Below, piece by piece: positions 2 to 12,739 of a DNA stretch of 38,943 nt. Positions within the stretch are counted from its first letter, which is position 1; each line of letters opens with the position of its first letter. The stretch comes from Verrucomicrobiota bacterium (GTDB taxonomy: Bacteria > Verrucomicrobiota > Verrucomicrobiia > Limisphaerales > DASXHY01), in the NCBI GenBank assembly GCA_051960355.1, contig JBQCEJ010000225.1:1-38943 (forward strand), in the 5' to 3' direction. The position numbers were made by a program, and so were the translations under genes. A model generated the notes under the pieces. It saw only the letters and a list, made by a program, of their open reading frames with translations, made no database searches and was not told the origin of the DNA.

Positions 2-1195
2 AACTTCCTTAACCGGAAGAACGAGGCAGACCAGCGGGTCTATGAGTTACTGGCCCAAAAATTCCAGCTTTTCGAAGGTGTCTTTGGCGCGAGCGACGAA
101 GTCCTGGGTGCCATTGAATCCGGCGTGGATTTCGAGAAGCGCATCAATGACATTTACCAGCGGTGTCGCAAGCACGAGGAAATCAAAACCGCCTTCGACA
201 AACTACAACTTGAGTTAAATCTGGAAATCAATTCGGCGATGACGCAAACCCGCCGCAAGCTGCTGGAGAACTTCGACGACGATGTTCGCGACAAGCTGAA
301 AATGCGGGACGAGAAGTCCAGGGCCTCTCTGAACAAGTTTGAGCGGTTGCTGATGCAACTCACACGGCACGAGTTGAGCGGTCACGCTGAGTTCGCAGAT
401 GATTCTGAATTCACACTGAAGTCTTGTCCATTTCCCGGTGAGATTCCGTTAGGCCGCTATGAGTTACCGCGTCGTTCTGGAGAAGCGCATCTCTATCGAC
501 TCGGCCATCCGCTCGCAGAATCAGTTCTCGCGCAGGCAAATAGACGGGAACTTTCTCCGGCGGAAATTCAGTTCGATTATTCCGCACACGATGGAAAGAT
601 CTCACTTCTGAAACCGTTGGCCGGCGAATCGGGATGGTTGACGCTCTCGCTATTCAGTGTTGAATCGCTGCACCAAACGGAAGACCGATTGATTTTTTCA
701 GCGATGACAGATGGCGGGCACGTTTTGGACGAAGAAATATCTCAACGACTGTTTTCCCTGGCTGGCTCGACGGAATCGCGTGTGTTCAATGTTCCGCCAG
801 GCGAACTGGAAACCGTCACACAGCAACGGAAAGCGACCATTCAGCGAGAAATTACCGAGCGGAACGCACAGTTCTTCGAAGCCGAAGCCGACAAACTTGA
901 AGGCTGGGCAGACGATATTAAGCTGGGGCTCGAACGGGAAATCAAAGAGCTTGACCGCCAAATCAAAGAGGCACGGCGGACCGCGACGCTGGCGCTCACT
1001 TTGGAAGAGAAGTTGGCAGGACAGAAACTGATCAAGGCACTGGAGGCGCAACGTGGCAACAAGCGCCGTTCCCTCTTCGATGCACAGGACAAGGTGGATA
1101 AACAACGCGATGAGTTGATTGCCAACATTGAACGAAAGTTAACGCAAAATGCCGCGCTGTTACGGCTTTTCACGGTTCGTTGGAAAGTGGTTTGA
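2..1195 (+). CDS. C-terminal part of a large SF2 (probably SNF2-like) helicase; 5' end lies outside the window
   Basis: Frame 2 is open from nt 2: NFLNRKNEADQRVYELLAQKFQLFEGVFGASDEVLG precedes the listed GTG at 125, so the gene enters the window truncated. It has a long C-terminal coiled-coil (EAEADKLEGWADDIKLGLEREIKELDRQIKEARR...). No helicase motifs fall inside the window. The SNF2 assignment rests on my recollection of this type of tail in defence-associated SNF2 helicases. Confidence 0.5.
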   Translation, partial: NFLNRKNEADQRVYELLAQKFQLFEGVFGASDEVLGAIESGVDFEKRINDIYQRCRKHEEIKTAFDKLQLELNLEINSAMTQTRRKLLENFDDDVRDKLKMRDEKSRASLNKFERLLMQLTRHELSGHAEFADDSEFTLKSCPFPGEIPLGRYELPRRSGEAHLYRLGHPLAESVLAQANRRELSPAEIQFDYSAHDGKISLLKPLAGESGWLTLSLFSVESLHQTEDRLIFSAMTDGGHVLDEEISQRLFSLAGSTESRVFNVPPGELETVTQQRKATIQREITERNAQFFEAEADKLEGWADDIKLGLEREIKELDRQIKEARRTATLALTLEEKLAGQKLIKALEAQRGNKRRSLFDAQDKVDKQRDELIANIERKLTQNAALLRLFTVRWKVV

Positions 1196-1200
1196 ATCCT

Positions 1201-1377
1201 ATGGACACTCCATCTCAAAAACTCGCGTCGAAAATCGTTGAGCGTCTTGTCTCAGAGAAGCTGCTCAACGTTGAAGCTGGGAAGAAGCTCCTGCCAAAGT
1301 TAATGGCTGGAAAACTCAATGCCGAAGATTGGCGATTGCCGATAGAAACCTCCGACAAAAAGGAGGCGAAACCGTGA
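1201..1377 (+). CDS. small hypothetical protein (58 aa)
   Basis: ATG at 1201 lies 5 nt after the helicase stop (TGA 1193-1195). Its stop TGA (1375-1377) overlaps the GTG start of the next gene (GTGA). No recognisable domain. Confidence 0.4.
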   Translation: MDTPSQKLASKIVERLVSEKLLNVEAGKKLLPKLMAGKLNAEDWRLPIETSDKKEAKP

Positions 1378-3704
1378 ACACAGCGCCATTGGCCAAGCTG
1401 ACGATTGCTCACCTTCGCGGCTCCGTGGTTCCATTCAACCTTCCATTTGAAAAGAATAAAAAACTGACTGTGATTTATGGCGAGAATGGTACGGGCAAGT
1501 CCACTATTTGCGATGCATTCGATTTCATTGGAAACGGCAAGGTAGGGTCTTTAGAGAACAGAGGGTTGGGCAGAACTTCCAAATATTGGCAATCCGTCGG
1601 AAAGAAGGCCACTGACTTGTCCGTCACCTTGGAAACCTTGTCTGCCGATCCAAAGAAACCTGATTCATGTCAGGCAATAGTAGGAAAAAGCGATGTCGTC
1701 GTAACTCCCTCGGCATTGCGTCCAAAGGTGGAAGTTTTGAGGCGCAGTCAGATTCTCGGACTGATCGAGGCCAAACCCGGAGATCGCTATGCGGCAATCA
1801 GTCGCTTCATTGACGTTTCGGGTATCGAGGCGTCAGAAGCGGCTCTTCGCGACTTGATTCGTGGTCTAAAAGAAAGCCGTGAAATTGCGATTGCTCGGGT
1901 GCAGGAAAATCTGGAGAGCTTGATCGTTTTTTGGGAAGCGGCTGGGAAACAAGGGAACGATCATCTTGCTTGGGCCGAGGAAGAATCCAAGAGAGCACCA
2001 GAAAATTCTGCTGAAGAGCTTTCAGCCTTGGACGGTTTGCAAACCGCTTTCAATCGTCTGACAGACTATCCAGCACAATTGAAAATCGCCGACCACAACG
2101 TGACCGTTGCGCAGCAGGCAGTGGTTGATGCGAGGAAGAAGTCAGAGGAGTGCGCCAAATCAATTGCTGCGGACGCAGGCGAGACAATGGGCATTCTCGA
2201 AACCGCCAGTGCCTTTTTTCACAAGCACCCCAATCCATCCACATGCCCATTATGTGATAGCTCCGAAAAGGTGGACGGACTGGCGCAGCGGATCAAACAA
2301 CGCCTGGAGCAGTTTTCTACGTTGCAGGCTGCTCTGCAAGATCAGAGGACAGCGGAGACCAGCCTACAGCGCGCCATCCAGCAATCGGATACTTTGAAAG
2401 GAAATGCCAAAAGGCACGCCCAGGATTTTGAAAAAGTGCGGGGAAGATTGACTGAGTGGCCAAAGGACATTGAACTTCCCAAGAGCGCTGCGCCTGAAGA
2501 CGCCGCCAGGTTAGCTGAATGGCTTGAGAAAAATGCCCTTCTTCCGACTCAATGGAAGAAAGTCGAAATAGCAAGGCAGGATCGGAAACAATTCCTAACC
2601 TCACTCAAGTCGGCGCTGAAAACCTTTCAGGATAATGTCAAAGCACAGAAGGAACTCGATGCATTGCTGCCCAAGCTGTCCAAGGCACTTGAGATCGTTG
2701 AAGAAGAGCGCAGAAAACTCACGGATGAAGTCCTTTCCAAAATCGCCGGTGAAGTTGGTCGCATCTACGAAATCGTTCACCCGGGTGAAGGGCTCAACAA
2801 AATTAGCCTGGAATTGGATCCCAAGAAGCGCGCATCCCTGGAAATCGGAACCGACTTCTATGGAGAAAAAGGCGCTCCGCCCCAAGCCTTTTTCAGCGAT
2901 TCGCATCTCGACACTCTGGGTCTTTGCGTTTTTCTCGCCCTGGCGGCGCTGGATGGGCCGGAGAAAACAATTCTGGTCCTCGACGATGTTCTTGCGAGCG
3001 TCGATGAGCCTCACGTCGAACGGTTAATCGAAATGCTCTACGCCGAAGCGGTGAAATTCCGGCATTGCGTCATTTCTACCCATTATCGGCCATGGAAGCA
3101 GAAGCTACGCTGGGGCTGGTTGAAAAACGGTCAATGCCATTTCATAGAACTGACCAGATGGACTGATCAGCGTGGCCTCACTCTTATCCGAAGTGTGCCG
3201 GATGCGGACCGCTTAAAGATTCTGCTCGCGGAGTCGCCGCCTGATCCACAGCTAGTTTGTGCCAAGGCGGGAGTGATTCTGGAAGCCATCCTCGATTTCA
3301 TTACCCAGATTTACGAATGCTCGATCCCGAGACGTCCGGGCGGCCTTTACACACTCGGCGATCTCTTGCCTTCCATCGACAAAAAGCTCCGTAATGCGTT
3401 GACCGTCGAAATCATGGCAAGGGACGAAGTCGGAACAGTCACCTATACATCCGTTAAGCTGGCGCCCATTCTCGACGAATTGATTCGAATTGCGCAAACC
3501 CGAAACGTTTTCGGATGTCACTTCAACACGCTCTCATTTGAACTGCTGGAAACGGATGCAATTGGTTTTGGAAAAAATGTCCTGCATTTGAGCGAAGCAA
3601 TCACTTGCCCTGAAGCGGGCTGGCCGAGAAGTGACAAGTCTGGAAAGTATTGGGCAACGTCCGGAGAAACGCGGCGTCTGCATCCTTTGCAACAACCGAC
3701 CTGA
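1374..3704 (+). CDS. SMC/Rad50-like ABC-type ATPase (AAA_13 / RloC-PrrC-like architecture) with a coiled-coil insertion and a C-terminal effector-like domain
   Basis: AGGAGG at 1361-1366 lies 7 nt before GTG 1374. Walker A GENGTGKST (1479-1505). About 300 aa of coiled-coil with CPLC at 2244-2255. Signature-like FSDSHLDTLGLCVFLALA. Walker B/D-loop ILVLDDVLASVDEPH (from 2970). ISTH H-loop. About 190-aa C-terminal domain containing RNVFGCH (3501-3521). Confidence 0.85.
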   Translation: MNTAPLAKLTIAHLRGSVVPFNLPFEKNKKLTVIYGENGTGKSTICDAFDFIGNGKVGSLENRGLGRTSKYWQSVGKKATDLSVTLETLSADPKKPDSCQAIVGKSDVVVTPSALRPKVEVLRRSQILGLIEAKPGDRYAAISRFIDVSGIEASEAALRDLIRGLKESREIAIARVQENLESLIVFWEAAGKQGNDHLAWAEEESKRAPENSAEELSALDGLQTAFNRLTDYPAQLKIADHNVTVAQQAVVDARKKSEECAKSIAADAGETMGILETASAFFHKHPNPSTCPLCDSSEKVDGLAQRIKQRLEQFSTLQAALQDQRTAETSLQRAIQQSDTLKGNAKRHAQDFEKVRGRLTEWPKDIELPKSAAPEDAARLAEWLEKNALLPTQWKKVEIARQDRKQFLTSLKSALKTFQDNVKAQKELDALLPKLSKALEIVEEERRKLTDEVLSKIAGEVGRIYEIVHPGEGLNKISLELDPKKRASLEIGTDFYGEKGAPPQAFFSDSHLDTLGLCVFLALAALDGPEKTILVLDDVLASVDEPHVERLIEMLYAEAVKFRHCVISTHYRPWKQKLRWGWLKNGQCHFIELTRWTDQRGLTLIRSVPDADRLKILLAESPPDPQLVCAKAGVILEAILDFITQIYECSIPRRPGGLYTLGDLLPSIDKKLRNALTVEIMARDEVGTVTYTSVKLAPILDELIRIAQTRNVFGCHFNTLSFELLETDAIGFGKNVLHLSEAITCPEAGWPRSDKSGKYWATSGETRRLHPLQQPT

Positions 3705-4158
3705 TCCTTTGAGCGAGAAGTTTACCGTCAACTTCAAGACCTCAACCGGGCATCACGTTCGGGTGACATTGGGATATTTTTGGCAGGAACTATCGGACTC
3801 CGACCGCCTCTTTGGATACAAACCCAAGCAGTTTCATGCGGTTCACGTTTATTCGACTGAAGACACCTTCCCGCGGCACTTGCAACTTCGGCATGAATAC
3901 CTGGCCGACAAGGATTACCAGCCCAAAATCGAAGCTGATTTGAAAATCTGGCTCGCCTCGATAATGAACGACAAACGGCATGGCGACTACGATTGTGTTG
4001 AAGACTTCCTGATAGATTTGGCAGACTCTTTCGAGCATCTGGCTGCTGAAACTGGCGATCTCATCCATCATCTGGCAGACCCTAGCATGGAAAACGATCC
4101 ATCGCTGCTTGGGTTTGAAGTGGATGACGAGCCGAAGGAAGAAGAGCCAGAACGTTGA
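3631..4158 (+). CDS. hypothetical protein with an acidic C-terminal tail (start uncertain; alternative TTG at 3709)
   Basis: ORF in the operon frame. GTG 3631 overlaps the ATPase gene by 74 nt. The in-frame TTG 3709 lies 5 nt after the ATPase stop. The C-terminus is EVDDEPKEEEPER. The stop TGA (4156-4158) overlaps TTG 4155 of mod. No domain recognised. Confidence 0.55.
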   Translation: MTSLESIGQRPEKRGVCILCNNRPDPLSEKFTVNFKTSTGHHVRVTLGYFWQELSDSDRLFGYKPKQFHAVHVYSTEDTFPRHLQLRHEYLADKDYQPKIEADLKIWLASIMNDKRHGDYDCVEDFLIDLADSFEHLAAETGDLIHHLADPSMENDPSLLGFEVDDEPKEEEPER

Positions 4159-4163
4159 GTGCG

Positions 4164-5888
4164 ATGATTTCAAAGAAGCAAAAACTTGAACTGACGTGGA
4201 TTGGGAAGGAAAACCGACCACGCCTGGAGCCGCGCATCCTGCTGGAGGACGCGGAGAAATCCTATCACGCCAAACACCGCGTCACCGACAATGATCTGTT
4301 CGATAACCGGCTCATTTTTGGCGACAATCTGCTCGCCCTCAAAGCGCTCGAACAGGAGTTCGCCGGCAAGATCAAGTGCATCTTCATTGACCCGCCTTAC
4401 AACACCGGCAGCGCTTTCAGTCATTACGATGACGGCATTGAACATTCCATTTGGCTTTCGCTAATGCGTGACCGACTCGAATTGCTACGCAAACTGCTTT
4501 CAGAGGACGGGGTGATATGGATTACTATTGACGACAACGAATGCCATTACCTCAAAATCCTTTGCGACGAAGTTTTCGGACGGGAAAATTTTGTCGCAAA
4601 CGTAATTTGGGAGAAGAAATCGTCATCGCAGTCTAACGCACAATGGCTTTCTGATTCCCACGACCATGTTCTAGTCTTTGCGAAAAACAAAGAAATTTGG
4701 CGTCCGGCAAAACTCGCAAGAACGGATGAGCAGAACGCAATTTACAAACACTGTGACGAATACGATGGAATAGACGCTAAAGGAAAAAGATATGGACGCG
4801 GTCCGTGGTTCCCTGGGGATTTCACAATCAGTCTTACAACCGGCCAGCGCGGGAAACAGTTTGCCAAAACAGGCGTCTCCGCAAATTTGTATCCAATCAC
4901 CACTCCCTCCGGGCGCGAGGTGATGCCTGCAAAAGGTAGGTGCTGGGCATACACAAAAGATTCGTTTGAACGTCTAAAGGCCGATAAGAGAGTGTATTTT
5001 GGCAAGGATGGAAGCAGCAAGCCAACGATCAAAAGATTCTTGTCCGAAATTGAAGACCAAGGAGTCGTTTGTCCAACCGTTTGGCACTATTCAGAAGTTG
5101 GCGAAAACCGAATTGCAGCAGTCGAAGTCAAAGCCTTCAACGAAGCGGATCCTTTTTCGGCCCCGAAGCCCGAACTGCTCCTTAAACGAGTTTTGGAACT
5201 TTCTACTAGCCCTCTTGATTGGGTTCTCGACTCCTTCGGCGGTTCAGGCACGACGGGCGCAGTCGCTCACAAAATGGGCCGTCGGTGGATCATGGTTGAG
5301 TTGGGTGAACATTGTCACACGCACATCATTCCCCGGCTCGAGAAAGTGATTGATGGTGCAGACTCCGGCGGGATTACAGAGGCTGTCGCCTGGAAAGGCG
5401 GCGGCGGGTTCCGTTATTACCGGCTCGCACCGTCGCTCCTGGAAAAAGACAAGTGGGGCAATTGGGTCATCAGCAAGGAGTTCAACGCCGCCATGCTCGC
5501 TGAGGCGGCTTGCAAGCTGGAAGGTTTCCAATACGCGCCCAGCGACACAGTGTATTGGCAGCACGGTCACTCCACTGAGCGGGATTTTATTTACGTCACC
5601 ACCGCGCACCTGACCGCTGACCAACTCGCGCAATTGAGCGATGAAGTCGGGCCAGAGCGCACGCTGCTGGTCCTTTGCGCCGCCTTCCGCGCAGGCACCC
5701 AGAACGTCACCGACCGGTTTCCCAACCTGACCGTGAAGAAGATTCCGAAACAGGTCCTCTCCCGCTGCGAATGGGGTCATGACGATTACAGCTTGAAAGT
5801 TGAAAACCTACCCAAAGCGCCGCCTCCGCTCCCGGCGGTGGACAAAAAGGGTCAGCAAACCCTGTTTTCAGAGGAGCCCGGTCGATGA
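4164..5888 (+). CDS. mod: Type III R-M Mod subunit; beta-class N6-adenine (or N4-cytosine) DNA methyltransferase
   Basis: Motif IV IFIDPPYNTG (DPPY at 4389-4400) precedes motif I DSFGGSGTTG (5235-5255), which is the beta-class order typical of Type III Mod. About 270 aa between them could be a target-recognition region. The N-terminal KLELTWIGKENRPRLEPRILLED is typical of this family. The start is ATG 4164, or TTG 4155 overlapping the upstream stop. Confidence 0.9.
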   Translation: MISKKQKLELTWIGKENRPRLEPRILLEDAEKSYHAKHRVTDNDLFDNRLIFGDNLLALKALEQEFAGKIKCIFIDPPYNTGSAFSHYDDGIEHSIWLSLMRDRLELLRKLLSEDGVIWITIDDNECHYLKILCDEVFGRENFVANVIWEKKSSSQSNAQWLSDSHDHVLVFAKNKEIWRPAKLARTDEQNAIYKHCDEYDGIDAKGKRYGRGPWFPGDFTISLTTGQRGKQFAKTGVSANLYPITTPSGREVMPAKGRCWAYTKDSFERLKADKRVYFGKDGSSKPTIKRFLSEIEDQGVVCPTVWHYSEVGENRIAAVEVKAFNEADPFSAPKPELLLKRVLELSTSPLDWVLDSFGGSGTTGAVAHKMGRRWIMVELGEHCHTHIIPRLEKVIDGADSGGITEAVAWKGGGGFRYYRLAPSLLEKDKWGNWVISKEFNAAMLAEAACKLEGFQYAPSDTVYWQHGHSTERDFIYVTTAHLTADQLAQLSDEVGPERTLLVLCAAFRAGTQNVTDRFPNLTVKKIPKQVLSRCEWGHDDYSLKVENLPKAPPPLPAVDKKGQQTLFSEEPGR

Positions 5889-5927
5889 AACCCTGCCTTG
5901 TCAAAGCCCCCGAGCGGAGTTAGCGTC

Positions 5928-6719
5928 ATGCCTAGTGAAGAGCCAGACAAGACAGTTTCAACCAGTCAAACCGCTTCTCACCCAGAAGCAGCTTGCGCAG
6001 ATCTTGTCCAATCGGCGCTCCATTTCCTCCGCCGAAGCTCATCGCCAGATGGCCGCCCACTTGGGCCGTCCTCTGTCGCCAGGCAGAAAGCTGACCTTCG
6101 TCAATGGGCGCAAGGTCTGGGCTTGCTGCTGACGCCGGACTGGCTTCCCACTATTCCGCTTCGAGGCGGACAGGAACACGATCTCTATCACGACACGCTG
6201 TCGGACCGCTATTTCAAGGTCACCCGCGAGGGCGTTTTCGGCTTCTCCCCCGGTATTGAACTCGCGCTGGTTTCCTCTGGCGAAGACGCCCGGCGTTTTC
6301 ATCTCTGGGAAGCCACCCCCGTGGAGTATTTGGAACGCCTCGCCCTGCACAACCAACTTGTCCCGGAAATTAACCGGCTGGAAGGCGTCTTGGATCAACC
6401 CGATGGCGACATGGCCGTCGTCACCTCCCAGCCGCGGTTCGATATTGTACCGGTTACGGAGTCGGAAATTGACGCGTGGTTTGCCGGACTGGGCTTCACC
6501 CGAATTACGCGCTCCGCCTATTACCGTGCCGACGACAACTTGGGAGTGTTTGACGCCCACGACAAAAACGTCGTTCGTGCCGGGACTTCGTTGATCCCAT
6601 TTGATATCATTCCCTGCCGCCCGGCCGAAGGGTTCCTGAAGTTCATCGAAGACACCCTGGCCGCAGGGCATACCCTCACGGCGCAGCGCACTGCCACCAC
6701 TTCATCTCGTTCAAAATGA
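5928..6719 (+). CDS. protein-kinase-fold protein (polyvalent-protein-type kinase-like) inserted between mod and res
   Basis: Motifs occur in kinase-like order and spacing: RGGQEHDLY (Gly-rich, from 6162), YFKVT Lys (6216-6218), FDAHDKN giving D-x4-N (6549-6569), and PFD 12 residues after the Asn (6597-6605). The stop overlaps the res start (ATGA 6716-6719). The start is ATG 5928 or TTG 5898. Confidence 0.6.
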   Translation: MPSEEPDKTVSTSQTASHPEAACADLVQSALHFLRRSSSPDGRPLGPSSVARQKADLRQWAQGLGLLLTPDWLPTIPLRGGQEHDLYHDTLSDRYFKVTREGVFGFSPGIELALVSSGEDARRFHLWEATPVEYLERLALHNQLVPEINRLEGVLDQPDGDMAVVTSQPRFDIVPVTESEIDAWFAGLGFTRITRSAYYRADDNLGVFDAHDKNVVRAGTSLIPFDIIPCRPAEGFLKFIEDTLAAGHTLTAQRTATTSSRSK

Positions 6720-9406
6720 AACCCCAGGTAAATGCCATCTCCGGTCGTCTGAGTCTGCGCCCGCCGCAACGTCGTTCGCTCGAAATCCTCGACCGGCTCA
6801 CGGAAATCGTCCCACCAAACAAGGGTTATGATCTGCCCGCCGCGCTGGAGATCATCAAGGGCGAGTTCCCGACGGTAAGCGATTTCGAGCGCGAGTTTCC
6901 CTCCCTTTGCTTTGCGCTGGCGACCGGCGTTGGCAAGACACGGCTCATGGGTGCTTTCATCAGCTACCTGCACCTCGCGCACGGCATCAACAATTTCTTC
7001 GTCATGGCTCCGAACCTGACGATTTACAACAAGCTGATTAACGACTTCACGCCGAACACGTCCAAATACGTGTTCAAAGGCATCGCCGAATTCGCCACCG
7101 ATTCACCGGAGATCATCACCGGCGACAACTATGAAGCCAAGGCAGGCACGCTGTTCGACCAGGTGCTTCGGTGCAAGATCAACATCTTCAACATCTCCAA
7201 GATCAATTCCGAGGTTCGCGGCGGCAAATCCCCGCGCATCAAACGTCTCTCGGAATACATTGGCGAAAGCTATTTTGAATATCTCGCCGCGTTGCCCGAC
7301 CTCGTGCTCATCATGGATGAGTCCCATCGCTATCGCGCCAGCGCTGGCGTGCGGGCGATCAACGAGTTGAAGCCGGTCATCGGCTTGGAATTGACGGCAA
7401 CGCCGATGGTCGAAACCTCCAAAGGCGCGGTGCCGTTCAAGAACGTCATTCTCGATTATCCGCTCGGCAAGGCGATGGCCGACGGATTCGTGAAAGAGCC
7501 AGCCGTCGTCACGCGCAAGAATTTCAATCCCGCCGGAATGACGCCGGAGGCCATCGAGCAGATGAAGCTCGAAGACGGTATTCGCTTGCACGAAAGCGTG
7601 AAGGTCGAACTGGAGACCTACGCTCGGGAGAGCGGCAACGCCATTGTGAAACCGTTCGTCCTCGTGATCGCCCGCGATACCACGCACGCCGGGCAGTTGA
7701 TGAAGCTGATTCAGTCCGAGGATTTCTTCAAAGGCGCATACAAGTCCAAGGTCATCCAGGTGGACTCCAGCAGGACCGGCGCGGAGGAAGACGAAATGGT
7801 CGAGCGTTTGTTGAAGGTAGAGCACAACGATGAGCCGACCGAAATCGTCATTCACGTGAACATGCTCAAAGAAGGGTGGGACGTGACGAATCTTTACACC
7901 ATTGTCCCGCTACGCGCCGCCAACGCGCGCATCCTGATCGAGCAGTCCATCGGGCGCGGCTTGCGTTTGCCGTACGGCAAGCGCACCGGGGTCAATGCAG
8001 TGGACCGCCTGAACATCATTGCGCACGACAAGTTTCAGGAAATCGTGGATGAAGCGAAAAAGCCCGATTCGGCCATTCGTCTGCAACAGGTCATTCTTGA
8101 GCCTGACAAACTGACCGAGAAAACCGTCACCGTCGTTTCACAGCCGCAACTGGCGAGCAAGCTCGGCTTTCAACCCGAGCAGACCACAGCGAGCACCCTT
8201 GTTCCCCAATCCGCCGAGTCGCCGGTGTTTACCACGCCGGAAGATCAGAAGGTTGCTCAAATCACCTACGAGGTGATCCGCAAGCTGGAAAATCAGCCGC
8301 AGAAGTTGCCGAGCGTCTCATACCTGTCCAAACCGGAAGTGCAGGCAGCGGTGTTGAAGGAAGTCCAGACGCAGTATCGGCCATCCCAACTGGAGATCGA
8401 AGGCGTGGCCAAGCAGCCAGATTTCGCGGCCATCGTAGCCAGAACCACGGAAGTCGTGATTCAGCAGACGATTGATATTCCGCGCATCCTGGTCGTGCCG
8501 ACCGGCAAAGTGCAATCCGGCTTCAATCCGTTCACCTTGAATCTCTCGACAATCAAATATCCGGTCGTTTCAGAAGAGCTTTGGGCCAAGCATCTGCGAA
8601 CGGATCAGGTGGACGTGATTGCCATGGGTAAAGGCGGCATCGAGGAAGCGCGTCTCGAAGACTACGTTGTAAGCGGCTTGGTGGATTTTGACGATGTTTC
8701 CTACGACGCCCATGCCGACCTGCTTTATGACCTCGCAGCCCAGGTCGTGAAGCATCTCCGCAGCTACCTTCCTGACGAGCACGAGATCAGCAAAGTGCTG
8801 CGCTGTTACCAGCGCGACATCGCCCGCTTCGTCCACGCGCAGATGCAGGAACACTATTGGGAGAAGGCTACCGGCTACGAAGTGAAAATCAGCAAAGGCT
8901 ATTCAGAATTAAAGCCCAGCGCATACACCGCCTCGGCCGCCGAGCCGGTGCTCGATTATCGCCAACCGCCTTCCGACAAGAGCAACATGGCCAAGTATTT
9001 GTTCGGTGGCTTCAAACGGTGCCTCTACCCGGTGCAGAAGTTCCAATCCGACAGCGAACGCAAACTGTCCGTGATTTTGGAGCGTGAAGCCGCAAAGTGG
9101 TTCAAGCCAGCAAAGGGGCAATTCCAGATCTTCTACAAATCGGGCGCTGACCATCTCGAATACCAACCCGATTTCGTCGCCGAAACCGACGGGGTGATTT
9201 ACATGCTTGAGCCCAAGGCAAAGAACGAAATGGCCGACGCCGAGGTTGTCGCCAAAAAGGAAGTGGCGGTGAAATGGTGCGGGCAAGCCAGTGATCATGC
9301 CGCTACGCATACCGGCAAGAAATGGCATTATCTTCTGATCCCCCACGACGCCATCGCCGAAAACATGACGCTGGAAGGTTTGGCGAAGCAATACAAAGTG
9401 AACTGA
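6716..9406 (+). CDS. res: Type III restriction enzyme Res subunit (SF2 helicase plus C-terminal PD-(D/E)xK nuclease)
   Basis: Motif I ALATGVGKTR (6923-6940). Motif II LIMDESHR. Motif III LELTATP. HVNMLKEGWDVTNLY. Motif VI QSIGRGLRLP. C-terminal YQPDFVAETDGVIYMLEPKAKNE, i.e. PD...EPK (9167-9217). Confidence 0.9.
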   Translation: MKPQVNAISGRLSLRPPQRRSLEILDRLTEIVPPNKGYDLPAALEIIKGEFPTVSDFEREFPSLCFALATGVGKTRLMGAFISYLHLAHGINNFFVMAPNLTIYNKLINDFTPNTSKYVFKGIAEFATDSPEIITGDNYEAKAGTLFDQVLRCKINIFNISKINSEVRGGKSPRIKRLSEYIGESYFEYLAALPDLVLIMDESHRYRASAGVRAINELKPVIGLELTATPMVETSKGAVPFKNVILDYPLGKAMADGFVKEPAVVTRKNFNPAGMTPEAIEQMKLEDGIRLHESVKVELETYARESGNAIVKPFVLVIARDTTHAGQLMKLIQSEDFFKGAYKSKVIQVDSSRTGAEEDEMVERLLKVEHNDEPTEIVIHVNMLKEGWDVTNLYTIVPLRAANARILIEQSIGRGLRLPYGKRTGVNAVDRLNIIAHDKFQEIVDEAKKPDSAIRLQQVILEPDKLTEKTVTVVSQPQLASKLGFQPEQTTASTLVPQSAESPVFTTPEDQKVAQITYEVIRKLENQPQKLPSVSYLSKPEVQAAVLKEVQTQYRPSQLEIEGVAKQPDFAAIVARTTEVVIQQTIDIPRILVVPTGKVQSGFNPFTLNLSTIKYPVVSEELWAKHLRTDQVDVIAMGKGGIEEARLEDYVVSGLVDFDDVSYDAHADLLYDLAAQVVKHLRSYLPDEHEISKVLRCYQRDIARFVHAQMQEHYWEKATGYEVKISKGYSELKPSAYTASAAEPVLDYRQPPSDKSNMAKYLFGGFKRCLYPVQKFQSDSERKLSVILEREAAKWFKPAKGQFQIFYKSGADHLEYQPDFVAETDGVIYMLEPKAKNEMADAEVVAKKEVAVKWCGQASDHAATHTGKKWHYLLIPHDAIAENMTLEGLAKQYKVN

Positions 9407-9723: not shown

Positions 9724-11961
9724 TTATTTTTCCGTAGTCAGGGTGCCGCTGAGTTGAACCGATTTACCCGCTTTGAGTTTGAGATCAGCAGTGAGATCGC
9801 CATAGCGCACTTTGCCGCCCGTGCCGGTCACGCTGCGAATCACGGCGTTCTTCAACTTGCCGCCAGCCCAGGTCAGGTCCACTTCGAAACCGCCGCGGGC
9901 GCGCAGCCCTTTCACGGAACCGGATGGCCAGACTAATGGGATTGCGGGCAGAAGATTGATTTCGCCTTCGTGACTTTGCACGAGCATTTCCGCCATGCCA
10001 GCTGTGACTCCAAAGTTGCCGTCCGCCTGCATTGGCGGGTGCAGCCCGAACAAATTCGGACAGGTGTTCCGGGCAGAGAAGAGCTGCTGCAACATGCGAT
10101 GCGCATTGTCGCCGTCGTGCAACCGCGCATACAAAGCCGTGCGCCATGCAAAGGACCATTCGCGCACGTCGCTCGCAGCATCAATTCCCCGAGCGTCGAG
10201 CGAAACTCGGGCGGCTTTCGCCAATTCCGGCGTCTTCACGATGCTAATCTGATTACCAGGGTAAACCGCGAAGAGATGCGACGTGTGGCGATGATGATCG
10301 TTGGGCGTGTCGAGTTCCGGATTTTTCGAAACAGCGTTGGTTCCGGTCTTCTCGGTCATCCATTCGAGCAATTGTCCCCAGCTTCCAATTTTTGGCGTGA
10401 CCAGCTTATCGCGCATGGTGGCGATTTTATCGCGATAAGCCCGATCCACACCCAGCGCATCGCTGGCCTGAATGTAGTTGTTGAACAAATCCCAAACAAT
10501 TTCCTGGCTGTAACTCACGCCATCTTCCTCGGGACCGTGTTCTGGCGACCACGCATTCGGAACGATCAGACCGCCGTCGGGCATGGTTTTCAGATGATCC
10601 TCCCAGAATTCGCAAGTTTCCTTGAGAATCGGATACGCAACCGTCCGGAGATACTTCTTGTCACCGCTGAATGCGTAATGTTCCCACAGATGCTGGCAGT
10701 ACCAGGCATTCGCGGTCTTGTCCCACTTCCATCCCATGCCGCCCATGACGTTGTGCGATGTGCGGATGGCAAACCCGCGGGAGGTCATCGCGCCTGAAGT
10801 TGTTTTGAAATCCGGCGACGCGGCGGTGGCCTTGCGCCAGGCGGGAAGCTGGCTGGCGATCAGGTCAAAGAACGGCACGTGACACTCGGCCATGTTCGCG
10901 ACTTCGGCAGGCCAGTAATTCATCTGCACGTTGATGTTCGCATGGTAATCGGAATGCCAAGGCGGATCGTTGCGATCGTTCCACAGGCCCTGCAAGTTCG
11001 CTGGCAAGCCGCCGGGACGCGAACACGAGATCAACAGATAACGGCCATATTGAAACAGCAGTTCCTCCAGCTCAGGATCCACGGTGTGGACCGCGGCGAG
11101 TTTGCGTTTGTCTGTCGGTTGCGAATTTTGTTCCGGCGACGATTTTCCAAGGTCGAGCGCGACGCGGTTGAAGAGTGATTGAAAATCTCTGACGTGTTCC
11201 GCCTTGAGCGTGGCAAAGCTTTTCCGCGAAGCCGCCGTCAATGCCGCGCTCAGGCGTTTGTGCGGCGGCTCACCGCGATAATGCTTCACGTAGTCCATCG
11301 CGTAGTCCGTGCCTGCAACGATCAGGAAGGTGAGGCGATTGCAGTTCTTGAACTCCAACGTCGTCCCGCTGGCCCGGAGCGAACCGCCCTCATGCAACGC
11401 GAGTAGTTGCCACTCAAATTTCAAACCATTGTCCAGCGCGCCGGAAACGATCAGCCGATTGCCTTCCGCTGCGACGCGGGCATTGTGCGAATCGGCCAAT
11501 TCGATCGTTCCCGTATAGCTGCCGGGCTTATCCGCAGTGAATTCCGCCGCGAGCACGTCCGCGGGATGACTGCACAAATATTCGCGCTGAAAGGTCACAC
11601 CGTGCGATTGATAAACGACCTTGGCCACGGCGTTGCTGAGATCCAGTTCACGGCGATAGTTGGAGTTGGTTTCATGGCCGGGCAAATTGATGAAGATGTT
11701 TCCAAACGTCTGATAGGAGCCCATTTTTTGATAGTCGCCCGAGAGGTTTTCGTCGCCGGTCCAGAGGCTGTTCTCATTGATGTTGATTCGTTCACGCTCA
11801 GGCACGCCGAAGATCAAACCACCGAGACGTCCGTTGCCGATCGGCAGCGCTTCGTTCATGGGATTTTTGGCCGGCTGCTCAAACCAGAGGGTCAAGTCCG
11901 CAGCGAAGCTGGTTTGGATCAACTGCCAAATAACGACGGCGCCTATAAATAACTTTTTCAT
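9724..11961 (-). CDS. glycoside hydrolase family 95 (alpha-L-fucosidase-like), secreted
   Basis: N-terminal signature [48 protein letters not shown], following the signal peptide [21 protein letters not shown] prefer the ATG at 11961 to the ORF-track start 12030, which overlaps the crp gene. Confidence 0.85.
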
Positions 11962-12019
11962 GATCTGCTTGCTGTGCGTCGGTTTGGACGGAACAGCGGG
12001 CGGCTCATTCACGCCCGGG

Positions 12020-12739
12020 TTACTCGCCAAGGTTGCGGCGCAGCAGCGCGTTCAAGCGGGCCGGCGAGAGGATCGTCACGGTCTTGTCTTTGACGGTCAG
12101 AAGCTTTTGCTGCCGGAACTTGGCCAATGTGCGGGAAAACGTTTCGCTGACCGTGCCGAGTTCGGCCGCCAGCACGCGCTTGGTCATGGTCAATTCGATG
12201 CGCGCCGGCTGTTCGCTGGCGGGATTGGGACAGCGCTTGATCAGCCAGTTGGCCAGCCGGGTTTCCACATCCTTCAAGGTCAGGTCTTCGAGTTGGCCGA
12301 CGAGCACGCGCAGATGACTGCTCATCGAGCCGAGCATGCGCAGCGCGAGTTCCGGCTGGCGTTGCAGCAGGGCGAGAATGCCGGCCTTTTGAACGAGCAG
12401 AACCTGCGAGGCCTCAAGTGCACGCGCATCGGCGGGATAACCCTTTTCGGAAGCCAGCGCCACTTCGGCAAAAGAATCGCCGGTGCGGAAGACGTGGATG
12501 ATCTGTTCCTTGCCCGCGGCGCTGACGCGATGAACGTTCACCGCGCCGCGCTGCACAATGTAAAAACCCACAGCGGGATCGCCTTCGTGAAACAAATAAT
12601 CCCCTTTATCAAGCGCCTTCACCACGGTCACGGCGGCGATATTTTCCAGATCCTGCAGCGGCAGTCCGGTGAACAACTGACAACTTCGGAGCGTGTTGAC
12701 GATGGCAATGGTTTTGAATTCGTTCAGAGCGGCGGACAT
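12020..12739 (-). CDS. Crp/Fnr-family transcriptional regulator (DNR/NnrR-like; no FNR-type Cys cluster)
   Basis: cNMP-binding fold ([23 protein letters not shown]...GDSFAEVAL) and a C-terminal HTH ([23 protein letters not shown]). It has a single N-terminal Cys. It lies in the nirK operon. Confidence 0.85.

Follow-up and report, generated by a model that had tools for sequence, protein, structure and literature searches.

A Rad50-like ATPase with a candidate zinc hook and a predicted HEPN-like C-terminal domain in a conserved operon with Type III restriction–modification genes

What a Rad50-like ATPase does in a restriction operon, and whether it carries a nuclease of its own, are the questions raised by a gene on a 38,943-nucleotide (nt) contig of a Verrucomicrobiota bacterium (GenBank assembly GCA_051960355.1, contig JBQCEJ010000225.1). 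The window analysed here is this whole contig, which opens inside the gene upstream of the ATPase. We used sequence searches, alignments, structure prediction and comparison of gene neighbourhoods. The analysis established the domain architecture of the protein [an ATP-binding cassette (ABC) ATPase head split by a coiled coil, followed by a C-terminal helical domain], the conservation of its motifs, the location of a CxxC motif at the coiled-coil tip in a confident structural model, and the conservation of the operon. The explanation that we favour, at a little better than an even chance, is a zinc-hook ATPase that would sense DNA and switch on an RNase as a back-up to Type III restriction.

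The open reading frame (ORF) lies in frame +3 and extends from a TTG at 1329 to the stop codon at 3702–3704. The likely start is the GTG at 1374, with AGGAGG 8 nt before it; this gives a protein of 776 amino acids (aa). The GTG overlaps the stop codon of a 58-aa ORF as GTGA. Residues are numbered from this GTG throughout. An initial annotation of the locus had counted from the TTG at 1329, an offset of 15, and its C306/C309 and R725/H731 are C291/C294 and R710/H716 here; the motifs that it quoted are all present in the sequence at the coordinates collected in Table 1.

The AlphaFold2 (AF2) model of the whole protein was built from an alignment of 134 sequences (A2; mean column identity 34%) and is confident [predicted local distance difference test score (pLDDT) 93.0, predicted template modelling score (pTM) 0.76]. 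Secondary structure was assigned with DSSP on this model and on a second AF2 model, of the C-terminal domain alone. Between the two halves of the head, helices 149–284 ascend, loop 285–302 holds CPLC, and helices 303–468 descend, giving a coiled coil of ~320 aa whose descending arm is longer by ~30 residues through an extra loop and helix (357–386). CPLC lies at the apex, as the initial annotation had proposed, because loop 285–302, the only long loop joining ascending and descending helices, is the turn of the antiparallel coiled coil. CP[VL]C is the Rad50/SbcC hook consensus.

Foldseek comparison of the whole model with the Protein Data Bank (PDB) gave 190 matches at E ≤ 0.001, including Rad50 (7zr1_D, 2.3e-13), Lamassu LmuB (9hqu_A, 1.2e-11; also 9uxh_F), and cohesin, condensin and SMC heads; the Rad50, SMC and LmuB heads span E-values from 1e-13 to 1e-8. 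The best PADLOC match is LmuB (3.6e-24, residues 138–580). Pfam AAA_13 scores 41.8 bits against a cut-off of 36, with residues 280–595 aligned to profile positions 275–597 of 713, and this match covers only the coiled coil and the second half of the head. NCBIfam SMC-related and Rad50 models also match, all below their cut-offs. In the literature, SMCs with a hinge are kept apart from the SMC-like proteins of the 'CxxC' group (Rad50, SbcC, long LmuB, the DndD/CxC clade and RloC), whose coiled coils run to a few hundred residues; the protein fits the latter group. The Walker B motif is of the hhhhDD type, as reported for long LmuB (PMC12663957). The split ABC head with all of its motifs, foreseen in the initial annotation as Rad50/RloC-like, and the antiparallel coiled coil with a conserved apical CxxC make this very probably a zinc-hook split ABC ATPase of the Rad50/SbcC class. 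C291 and C294 would bind Zn and allow the hook to dimerise. No gene cluster encoding an Mre11/SbcD-type nuclease was found among the conserved neighbours of the loci compared by ORF clustering.

The family of the protein is large. With a word-indexed search, 743 matches came up; the best 120 of these were all at least 60% identical, and the named sources among them were Verrucomicrobia or Opitutaceae. When 1.84 billion cluster representatives were searched exhaustively with HMMER, 2646 matched at E ≤ 1e-3, of which 513 reached E ≤ 1e-30; the 513 family clusters are defined at 50% identity and cover many phyla, and the top 150 of the 2646 are nearly all 750–800 aa long and 30–47% identical to the query. 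A MAFFT alignment of 125 full-length representatives from many phyla, in the same range of identity (30–47%), bears out the conservation expected for the pairs C291/C294 and R710/H716: C291, P292, C294 and R710 are each present in 125/125 sequences, N711 in 122/125, and G714 and H716 in 124/125. CP[VL]C occurs in all 125 aligned sequences and in 60/60 genome loci. In A2 the invariant columns number only 22. They include the ATPase positions G41, K42, S508, H511, D537, D538, S542, D544, H547 and H570, together with C291, P292, C294, E637, R710 and a few others. Judged from these alignments, the hook CxxC and the R-N...H motif are among the most constrained positions of the protein, beyond what chance would give. 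The family is annotated today as 'AAA family ATPase' or 'hypothetical protein', no source naming any member more specifically than such generic labels, and defence-finder profiles recognise no system.

The C-terminal domain comprises ~190 aa and was modelled alone (residues 586–776, 42-sequence alignment) with pLDDT 91.7 and pTM 0.84. Its layout is H1 (610–619), a long H2 (625–646) containing E637, H3 (697–715), H4 (726–743) and a beta tail. An insert between H2 and H3 (647–696) forms two short helices and a beta-hairpin (677–695), and H3 ends in R710-N711-x2-G714-x-H716, an Rx5H motif. HEPN domains are four-helix bundles with Rx4-6H at the end of helix 3; N, D or H usually follows the Arg, helix 2 holds a conserved acidic residue, and inserts between helices 2 and 3 are frequent (Anantharaman et al., 2013; PMC3710099). 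All four descriptors are found in the window protein: the position of the motif, the polar residue after the Arg, the acid in helix 2 and the H2–H3 insert. From sequence and model, the C-terminal domain is likely to be a HEPN-type RNase domain.

Many relatives, among them 18/60 family members and the distant relatives described below, have a CxxC...CxC zinc ribbon at the C-terminus [loci L021, L024–L027, L063, L066, L072–L076, L084 and L085; CxxC...CxC(G), after the HEPN-like domain], and a few members weakly match ribosomal L37ae zinc-ribbon models. The ribbon is probably ancestral, the window's clade having kept the segment and lost its Cys ligands.

The genomic context was compared across longer homologous contigs and 79 loci from species-representative genomes of many phyla, by ORF calling and all-against-all clustering; 46 loci have a full-length ATPase gene and enough flanking sequence. 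The conserved order is an SNF2 gene (~950 aa), a small protein gene (58–80 aa), the ATPase gene, variable genes, mod, further variable genes and res, all co-directional and with overlapping starts and stops. Upstream of the ATPase gene, 36/46 loci have SNF2; downstream, 34/46 have Mod and 32/46 have Res, the last count including a second Res family (c9). The two components expected of a Type III system, Mod (an N6/N4 methyltransferase) and Res (an SF2 ATPase with a nuclease), are both present in the window. The link to a Type III restriction–modification (R-M) system that had been made from the window alone is thus seen across the family, and the conserved SNF2 and 58-aa partners, which that first inspection missed, can be added to it.

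No partners are more constant than the SNF2 gene and the 58-aa ORF, and of the two the small protein is the more faithful. Its homologues stand directly upstream of the ATPase gene in 36 loci by BLAST clustering, and a profile finds a homologue somewhere in 60 loci; searches of Pfam, PADLOC and NCBIfam returned nothing for it. Plasmid relatives that are 23–24% identical (L084, L085) likewise have a small ORF before the ATPase gene, its stop overlapping the start of that gene, and by eye the one in L085 looks homologous. In one distant plasmid relative (Bradyrhizobium), a DUF262 gene, not SNF2, is next upstream of the small ORF. The 58-aa protein is probably an obligate partner or regulator of the ATPase. 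The full-length SNF2 orthologue in the closest long contig (L001; 949 aa) matches DrmD (PDLC02619) at 4.2e-209, far better than HmaA (1.5e-52) or BrxH, and contains Pfam SNF2-rel_dom and Helicase_C; its C-terminal ~350 aa have no Pfam match and no obvious nuclease motif.

The closest described architecture is that of RloC, which has a Rad50-like head, a zinc-hook coiled coil and, at its C-terminus, an anticodon nuclease that is controlled by the hook and by a DNA-dependent ATPase (Davidov & Kaufmann, 2008; Klaiman et al., 2012; PMC2610378, PMC3458546). RloC cleaves the anticodon loop and excises the wobble nucleotide. The window protein shares the split ABC head, the coiled coil with apical CxxC and the nuclease-type C-terminal domain at a similar length (~780 aa versus 803 aa), as well as the R-M linkage sometimes seen in RloC, and RloC is the best working model for it, namely a DNA- and ATP-dependent RNase switch. 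The differences lie in the C-terminal part and in the surroundings. The RloC/PrrC catalytic triad is R-x3-E-x36-52-H, often with a Ser before the His, whereas the window motif is of the classical HEPN kind (E637...R710-N711-x4-H716). The triad is absent as written: a nearly invariant Gly (G633, at least 90%) stands four residues before E637, H716 is 78 residues after E637 rather than within the x36-52 spacing, and R710 adjoins N711. The C-terminal domains do not align by profile. The window family has, in addition, a dedicated 58-aa upstream partner, an ancestral zinc ribbon and its usual SNF2 and Type III operon, whereas RloC is mostly solitary and is R-M-linked in 8/72 cases, against Mod in 34/46 window-family loci. 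The family was set apart from RloC and PrrC through their published descriptions and Pfam AAA_13 rather than through authentic sequences. Of the resemblance to the PrrC/RloC (AAA_13) family suggested for the window protein at the outset, the AAA_13 match holds above cut-off, and membership of RloC/PrrC proper is not supported, the triad being absent as written and the post-head part unaligned.

Distant relatives that are 22–25% identical (L066, L072, L076 and the plasmid genes L084 5911–8367 and L085 6001–8451) carry 'R-R-x-L-E' in helix 2, and their helix 3 ends in 'N-x3-(S)H'; the combination is similar to the RloC/PrrC pattern. At the level of such patterns, the window and RloC/PrrC nuclease domains may be related, with the catalytic Arg moved from the place of G633 to R710.

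In PrrC, the partner of EcoprrI, an ABC ATPase is likewise joined to an RNase of the HEPN family; its gene sits within an R-M operon, and the logic is again that of a second line. PrrC differs in its size (~400 aa), in being without coiled coil or hook, and in being embedded in Type Ic rather than Type III R-M; only for PrrC has it been shown that the R-M enzyme silences the nuclease and that the phage Stp peptide activates it. Two further proteins, APECO1_4465 and ERFG_01251, are ABC ATPases with a C-terminal HEPN domain (PMC3710099). The HEPN domain of ERFG_01251 is classical and close to the MNT-associated kind, and the best TM-score of the window domain is also to an MNT-associated HEPN protein (1wwp). 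ERFG_01251 differs by an extra N-terminal domain and CRISPR-linked contexts (PMC3710099), APECO1_4465 was described in prophages, and neither was described with SNF2 and Type III genes. Both were compared by published description only, and identity of the window protein with either is possible.

The mechanism that we favour starts from a two-gene module of the 58-aa protein and the ATPase, usually placed in one operon with the DrmD-like SNF2 translocase and Mod/Res. Two ATPase chains would be joined at the hook through Zn held by C291 and C294. The heads would bind DNA, most likely ends or other abnormal DNA arising from infection or from Type III cleavage, and ATP-driven engagement and disengagement of the heads would rearrange the two C-terminal domains so that the site formed by E637, R710, N711 and H716 becomes active. 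HEPN RNases generally use a composite site formed in a dimer. The HEPN-type domain would act as a metal-independent RNase, cutting tRNA or mRNA, and the resulting stop in translation would serve as an abortive second line when DNA restriction fails. The gene of the small protein is translationally coupled and occupies an antitoxin-like position, and its product is a candidate for a silencer or adaptor; the SNF2 motor may bring in the DNA substrate or remodel it. We infer Zn binding, dimerisation, DNA sensing, RNase action, the RNA that is cut and the sequence of steps by analogy with Rad50, LmuB and RloC; we hold the logic of a back-up RNase tentatively, at rather less than an even chance.

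Several results weigh against this explanation. For the C-terminal domain, Foldseek gave no significant match (best E 0.37 in PDB, 0.09 in BFVD). The highest PDB TM-scores were to HEPN proteins and were not significant [1wwp_A, the MNT-associated HEPN: TMt 0.50, probability 0.23, root-mean-square deviation (rmsd) 7.4; 6tug_A, a Csm6: TMq 0.36]. A Pfam scan of 42 C-terminal domains found nothing except HEPN_AbiU2 in one member at 0.022, NCBIfam and PADLOC scans of the same domains found no HEPN profile, and hhalign of the C-terminal alignment against E. coli K-12 RnlA, a HEPN RNase, gave no match. The profile of the C-terminal alignment found only chance matches among PDB sequences; a match to Fe/Mn superoxide dismutase ('RNNAGGHYNH') was discarded as a coincidence of motif. 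The HEPN assignment rests on motif and helix topology, and no fold or profile search confirms it; of the HEPN domain foreseen in the initial annotation, the motif was upheld, the helix topology and the invariant E637 agree with it, and the fold was not confirmed. The AAA_13 alignment stops at profile position 597 of 713, with the post-head part unaligned also in nine distant relatives. The Walker B motif has DD, not DE, and ATP turnover may therefore be slow. SNF2, Mod and Res are all missing from 10/46 loci, so coupling to Type III R-M is frequent and not obligatory. A literature search found no experiment on any member of the family.

The absence of a significant match to any nuclease fold or profile leaves room for the main alternative, an ATPase that is a DNA-handling accessory of the Type III enzyme and has no RNase activity. 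The role of the zinc-hook ATPase and the SNF2 motor would then be the loading, tethering or licensing of Mod/Res on DNA, comparable to that of BrxC or MtsA towards their methyltransferases, and the C-terminal domain would be a module for binding nucleic acid or protein. The tight conserved operon with SNF2, Mod and Res agrees with such a role, as does the C-terminal zinc ribbon of many relatives, a common nucleic-acid-binding element, and ATPase-dependent loading of a methyltransferase is documented for MANTIS. We nevertheless consider it unlikely. The conserved Arg-Asn...His and the invariant Glu stand at HEPN-typical positions across sequences that are 30% identical, which points to catalysis, and the ATPase must be able to act on its own, because it is found with its small partner where SNF2, Mod and Res are missing, on Hymenobacter plasmids and beside a DUF262 gene.

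Even less probable is that the protein is a true RloC orthologue. Its overall architecture, its size, the AAA_13 match over cut-off and the R-R-x-L-E and N-x3-(S)H patterns of the distant relatives would agree with orthology; in the window protein itself, however, G633 occupies the Arg position of the triad, the Glu-to-His distance is too long and the Arg sits beside the Asn as in classical HEPN domains. AAA_13 fails to align past the head, no source calls any member RloC, and linkage to R-M is rare in RloC. The strength of the LmuB profile match, the LmuB and Rad50 structures found by Foldseek and the hhhhDD Walker B raise a third alternative, a Lamassu LmuB or a housekeeping SbcC/Rad50 repair paralogue, which we regard as very improbable: the conserved neighbourhoods hold no LmuA-, LmuC- or Mre11/SbcD-like gene and consist of R-M and abortive-infection genes, and the LmuB and SbcC/Rad50 families are without a fused C-terminal domain.

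A wider interpretation, which is possible though we doubt it somewhat, takes the locus as one example of a widespread unnamed defence system. Its five core genes would encode a DrmD-like SNF2 protein, the 58-aa protein, the zinc-hook ATPase with its HEPN domain and zinc ribbon, Mod and Res, and in it an RNase would be directly joined to a DNA sensor of the Rad50 type. The small protein and the ATPase would form a portable, toxin–antitoxin-like module that plugs into varied DNA-targeting partners (SNF2 and Type III genes here, a DUF262 protein in Bradyrhizobium, none on the Hymenobacter plasmids), and the nuclease domain would be intermediate between the RloC/PrrC and classical HEPN sites, with its Arg relocated.

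Comparison with other known systems did not place the locus in any of them. Lamassu LmuB, which senses DNA ends (PMC12663957), is nearest to the ATPase part by profile and among the nearest by structure, and it shares the CxxC hook (in its long forms) and the hhhhDD Walker B, but Lamassu has a separate effector, LmuA, with LmuC, whereas the putative effector of the window belongs to the ATPase chain itself, and SNF2, the 58-aa protein and Mod/Res accompany it; an assignment to Lamassu was rejected because no LmuA- or LmuC-like gene is a conserved neighbour. Hma and BREX-related Type 1 loci combine an SNF2-type helicase, an adenine methyltransferase and a large ATPase that often carries a HEPN fusion and, like the present operon, embed defence genes. 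The HEPN-fused ATPase of Hma (DUF499) is predicted to be a last-resort RNase. It is a STAND/ORC-type AAA+ protein with an N-terminal HEPN domain, whereas the window protein is a zinc-hook ABC ATPase with a C-terminal HEPN-like domain, and the Hma helicase carries its own nuclease, whereas the window operon has a complete Type III Res; the different class of ATPase rules Hma out. The MADS-like system that had also been envisaged was not borne out. MADS is an operon, mad1-8, with mad6-8 mandatory and a Type I-like specificity subunit; here mad3 matches only the N-terminal P-loop half, and weakly (5.3e-11, residues 21–182), no other mad genes were found, and the neighbours are SNF2 and Type III genes. 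DISARM class 1 consists of DrmD with DrmMI, DrmA, DrmB (DUF1998) and DrmC; the SNF2 protein is DrmD-like, but DrmA, DrmB and DrmC are missing from the window and from the conserved clusters. The Menshen and YprA systems are unrelated according to the literature.

ABC–HEPN fusions in R-M neighbourhoods are already known (PrrC, RloC, APECO1_4465, ERFG_01251), as is the combination of parts in Hma and BREX-related Type 1 loci. The apparent novelty lies in the family and its operon: a zinc-hook ABC ATPase that combines a classical-type HEPN motif with an ancestral zinc ribbon, a small and probably obligate partner, and the conserved association with a DrmD-like SNF2 protein and Type III genes. A literature search found no earlier description of the operon; a mention in work on ABC-ATPase classification is possible. 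How abortive effectors that target RNA back up restriction is known in detail only for PrrC with EcoprrI, and the trigger of RloC in vivo is unclear. The present family brings a DNA sensor of the Rad50 type together with an RNase-like domain, a motor of the chromatin-remodeller type and a classical Type III enzyme, all encoded in a compact conserved setting, and the coupling of DNA restriction, DNA-end sensing and translation shut-off could be tested in it by point mutants. It adds a large family to those that are annotated only generically.

Table 1. Coordinates of the ATPase gene, its motifs and domains, and the neighbouring genes in the window
Feature	Residues	Nucleotides	Strand	Basis or remark
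DrmD-like SNF2 ATPase, C-terminal 356 aa		125..1195	+	PADLOC DrmD 2.4e-13; first operon gene, cut by contig start
58-aa small protein		1201..1377	+	Stop overlaps ATPase start (GTGA)
ATPase gene		1374..3704	+	776-aa Rad50-like zinc-hook ABC ATPase with C-terminal HEPN-like domain (predicted)
Walker A GENGTGKST	36–44	1479–1505	+	G41, K42 invariant in 134 sequences
Antiparallel coiled-coil insert	149–468	1818..2777	+	AF2 helices; LmuB and JetC profile matches
CPLC zinc-hook candidate (C291, C294)	291–294	2244–2255	+	Apical loop 285–302
Second ABC head half (FSDSHLD, ILVLDDVLASVDEPH, ISTH)		2892..3083	+	Invariant residues; Foldseek
FSDSHLD, signature position	507–513		+	S508, H511 invariant
Walker B/D-loop ILVLDDVLASVDEPH	533–547		+	D537, D538, S542, D544, H547 invariant
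ISTH, H-loop H570	567–570		+	H570 invariant
HEPN-like helical domain	610–745	3201..3608	+	Predicted secondary structure and conservation
E637 in H2	637	3282–3284	+	Invariant (134-sequence alignment)
RNVFGCH	710–716	3501–3521	+	End of H3
C-terminal tail	746–776	3609..3701	+	Homologous to the CxxC...CxC zinc ribbon of relatives
149-aa ORF, acidic C-terminus (DDEPKEEEPE)		3709..4158	+	TTG start just after ATPase stop; overlaps Mod start
Type III Mod		4155..5888	+	Pfam N6_N4_Mtase 9.6e-47; PADLOC MTase_III 5.2e-216
Kinase-PolyVal-type protein kinase		5898..6719	+	PF18762 6.4e-10; between Mod and Res
Type III Res		6716..9406	+	Pfam ResIII 1.1e-21; PADLOC REase_III 7.2e-215

Two genes of the window operon fill the variable slots. 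The 149-aa ORF has no family match in Pfam, PADLOC or NCBIfam, and neither it nor the Kinase-PolyVal kinase clusters with any ORF of the other loci; the kinase was considered as a core component and rejected, not being conserved across loci. Elsewhere the slots between the genes are occupied by known genes of defence or abortive infection (AIPR, AbiEi/AbiEii, YhcG/DUF1016, RhuM, Schlafen/AlbA_2, DUF2130 and HNH), and because their content varies between loci, the 149-aa ORF and the kinase are embedded accessory genes, not core genes. Embedded accessory genes have been described for Hma, BREX, DISARM and Type I loci; Type III R-M loci hold them likewise, as candidate defence genes. A glycoside hydrolase of the GH95 alpha-fucosidase type (9724–12030, minus strand) marks the right end of the defence operon.

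Individual loci depart from the usual arrangement. On five Hymenobacter and Fibrella plasmids the ATPase gene occurs without SNF2 or Type III genes. In one of them (L082; Hymenobacter plasmid NZ_CP110140.1, 26414–28801) it stands amid JAB/MPN, WYL and patatin-like phospholipase genes and a Fic/VbhA pair; PGAP labels the Hymenobacter plasmid protein 'AAA family ATPase' only. A 55%-identical homologue in L005 (10001–12325) reads RNLQGSP, with Pro in place of the His, has no SNF2, Mod or Res around it, and looks like a decaying solitary copy. In L002 (12273–13346) Mod is truncated to 357 aa and no Res follows, and a gene with an HSDR_N nuclease domain precedes SNF2; this locus is a remodelled or decayed version of the system. 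In L001 (1–5203) a tyrosine integrase, an HTH_17 protein and a Toprim/DUF3987 primase-like gene stand just upstream of the system, which suggests that there it is the cargo of an integrative mobile element.

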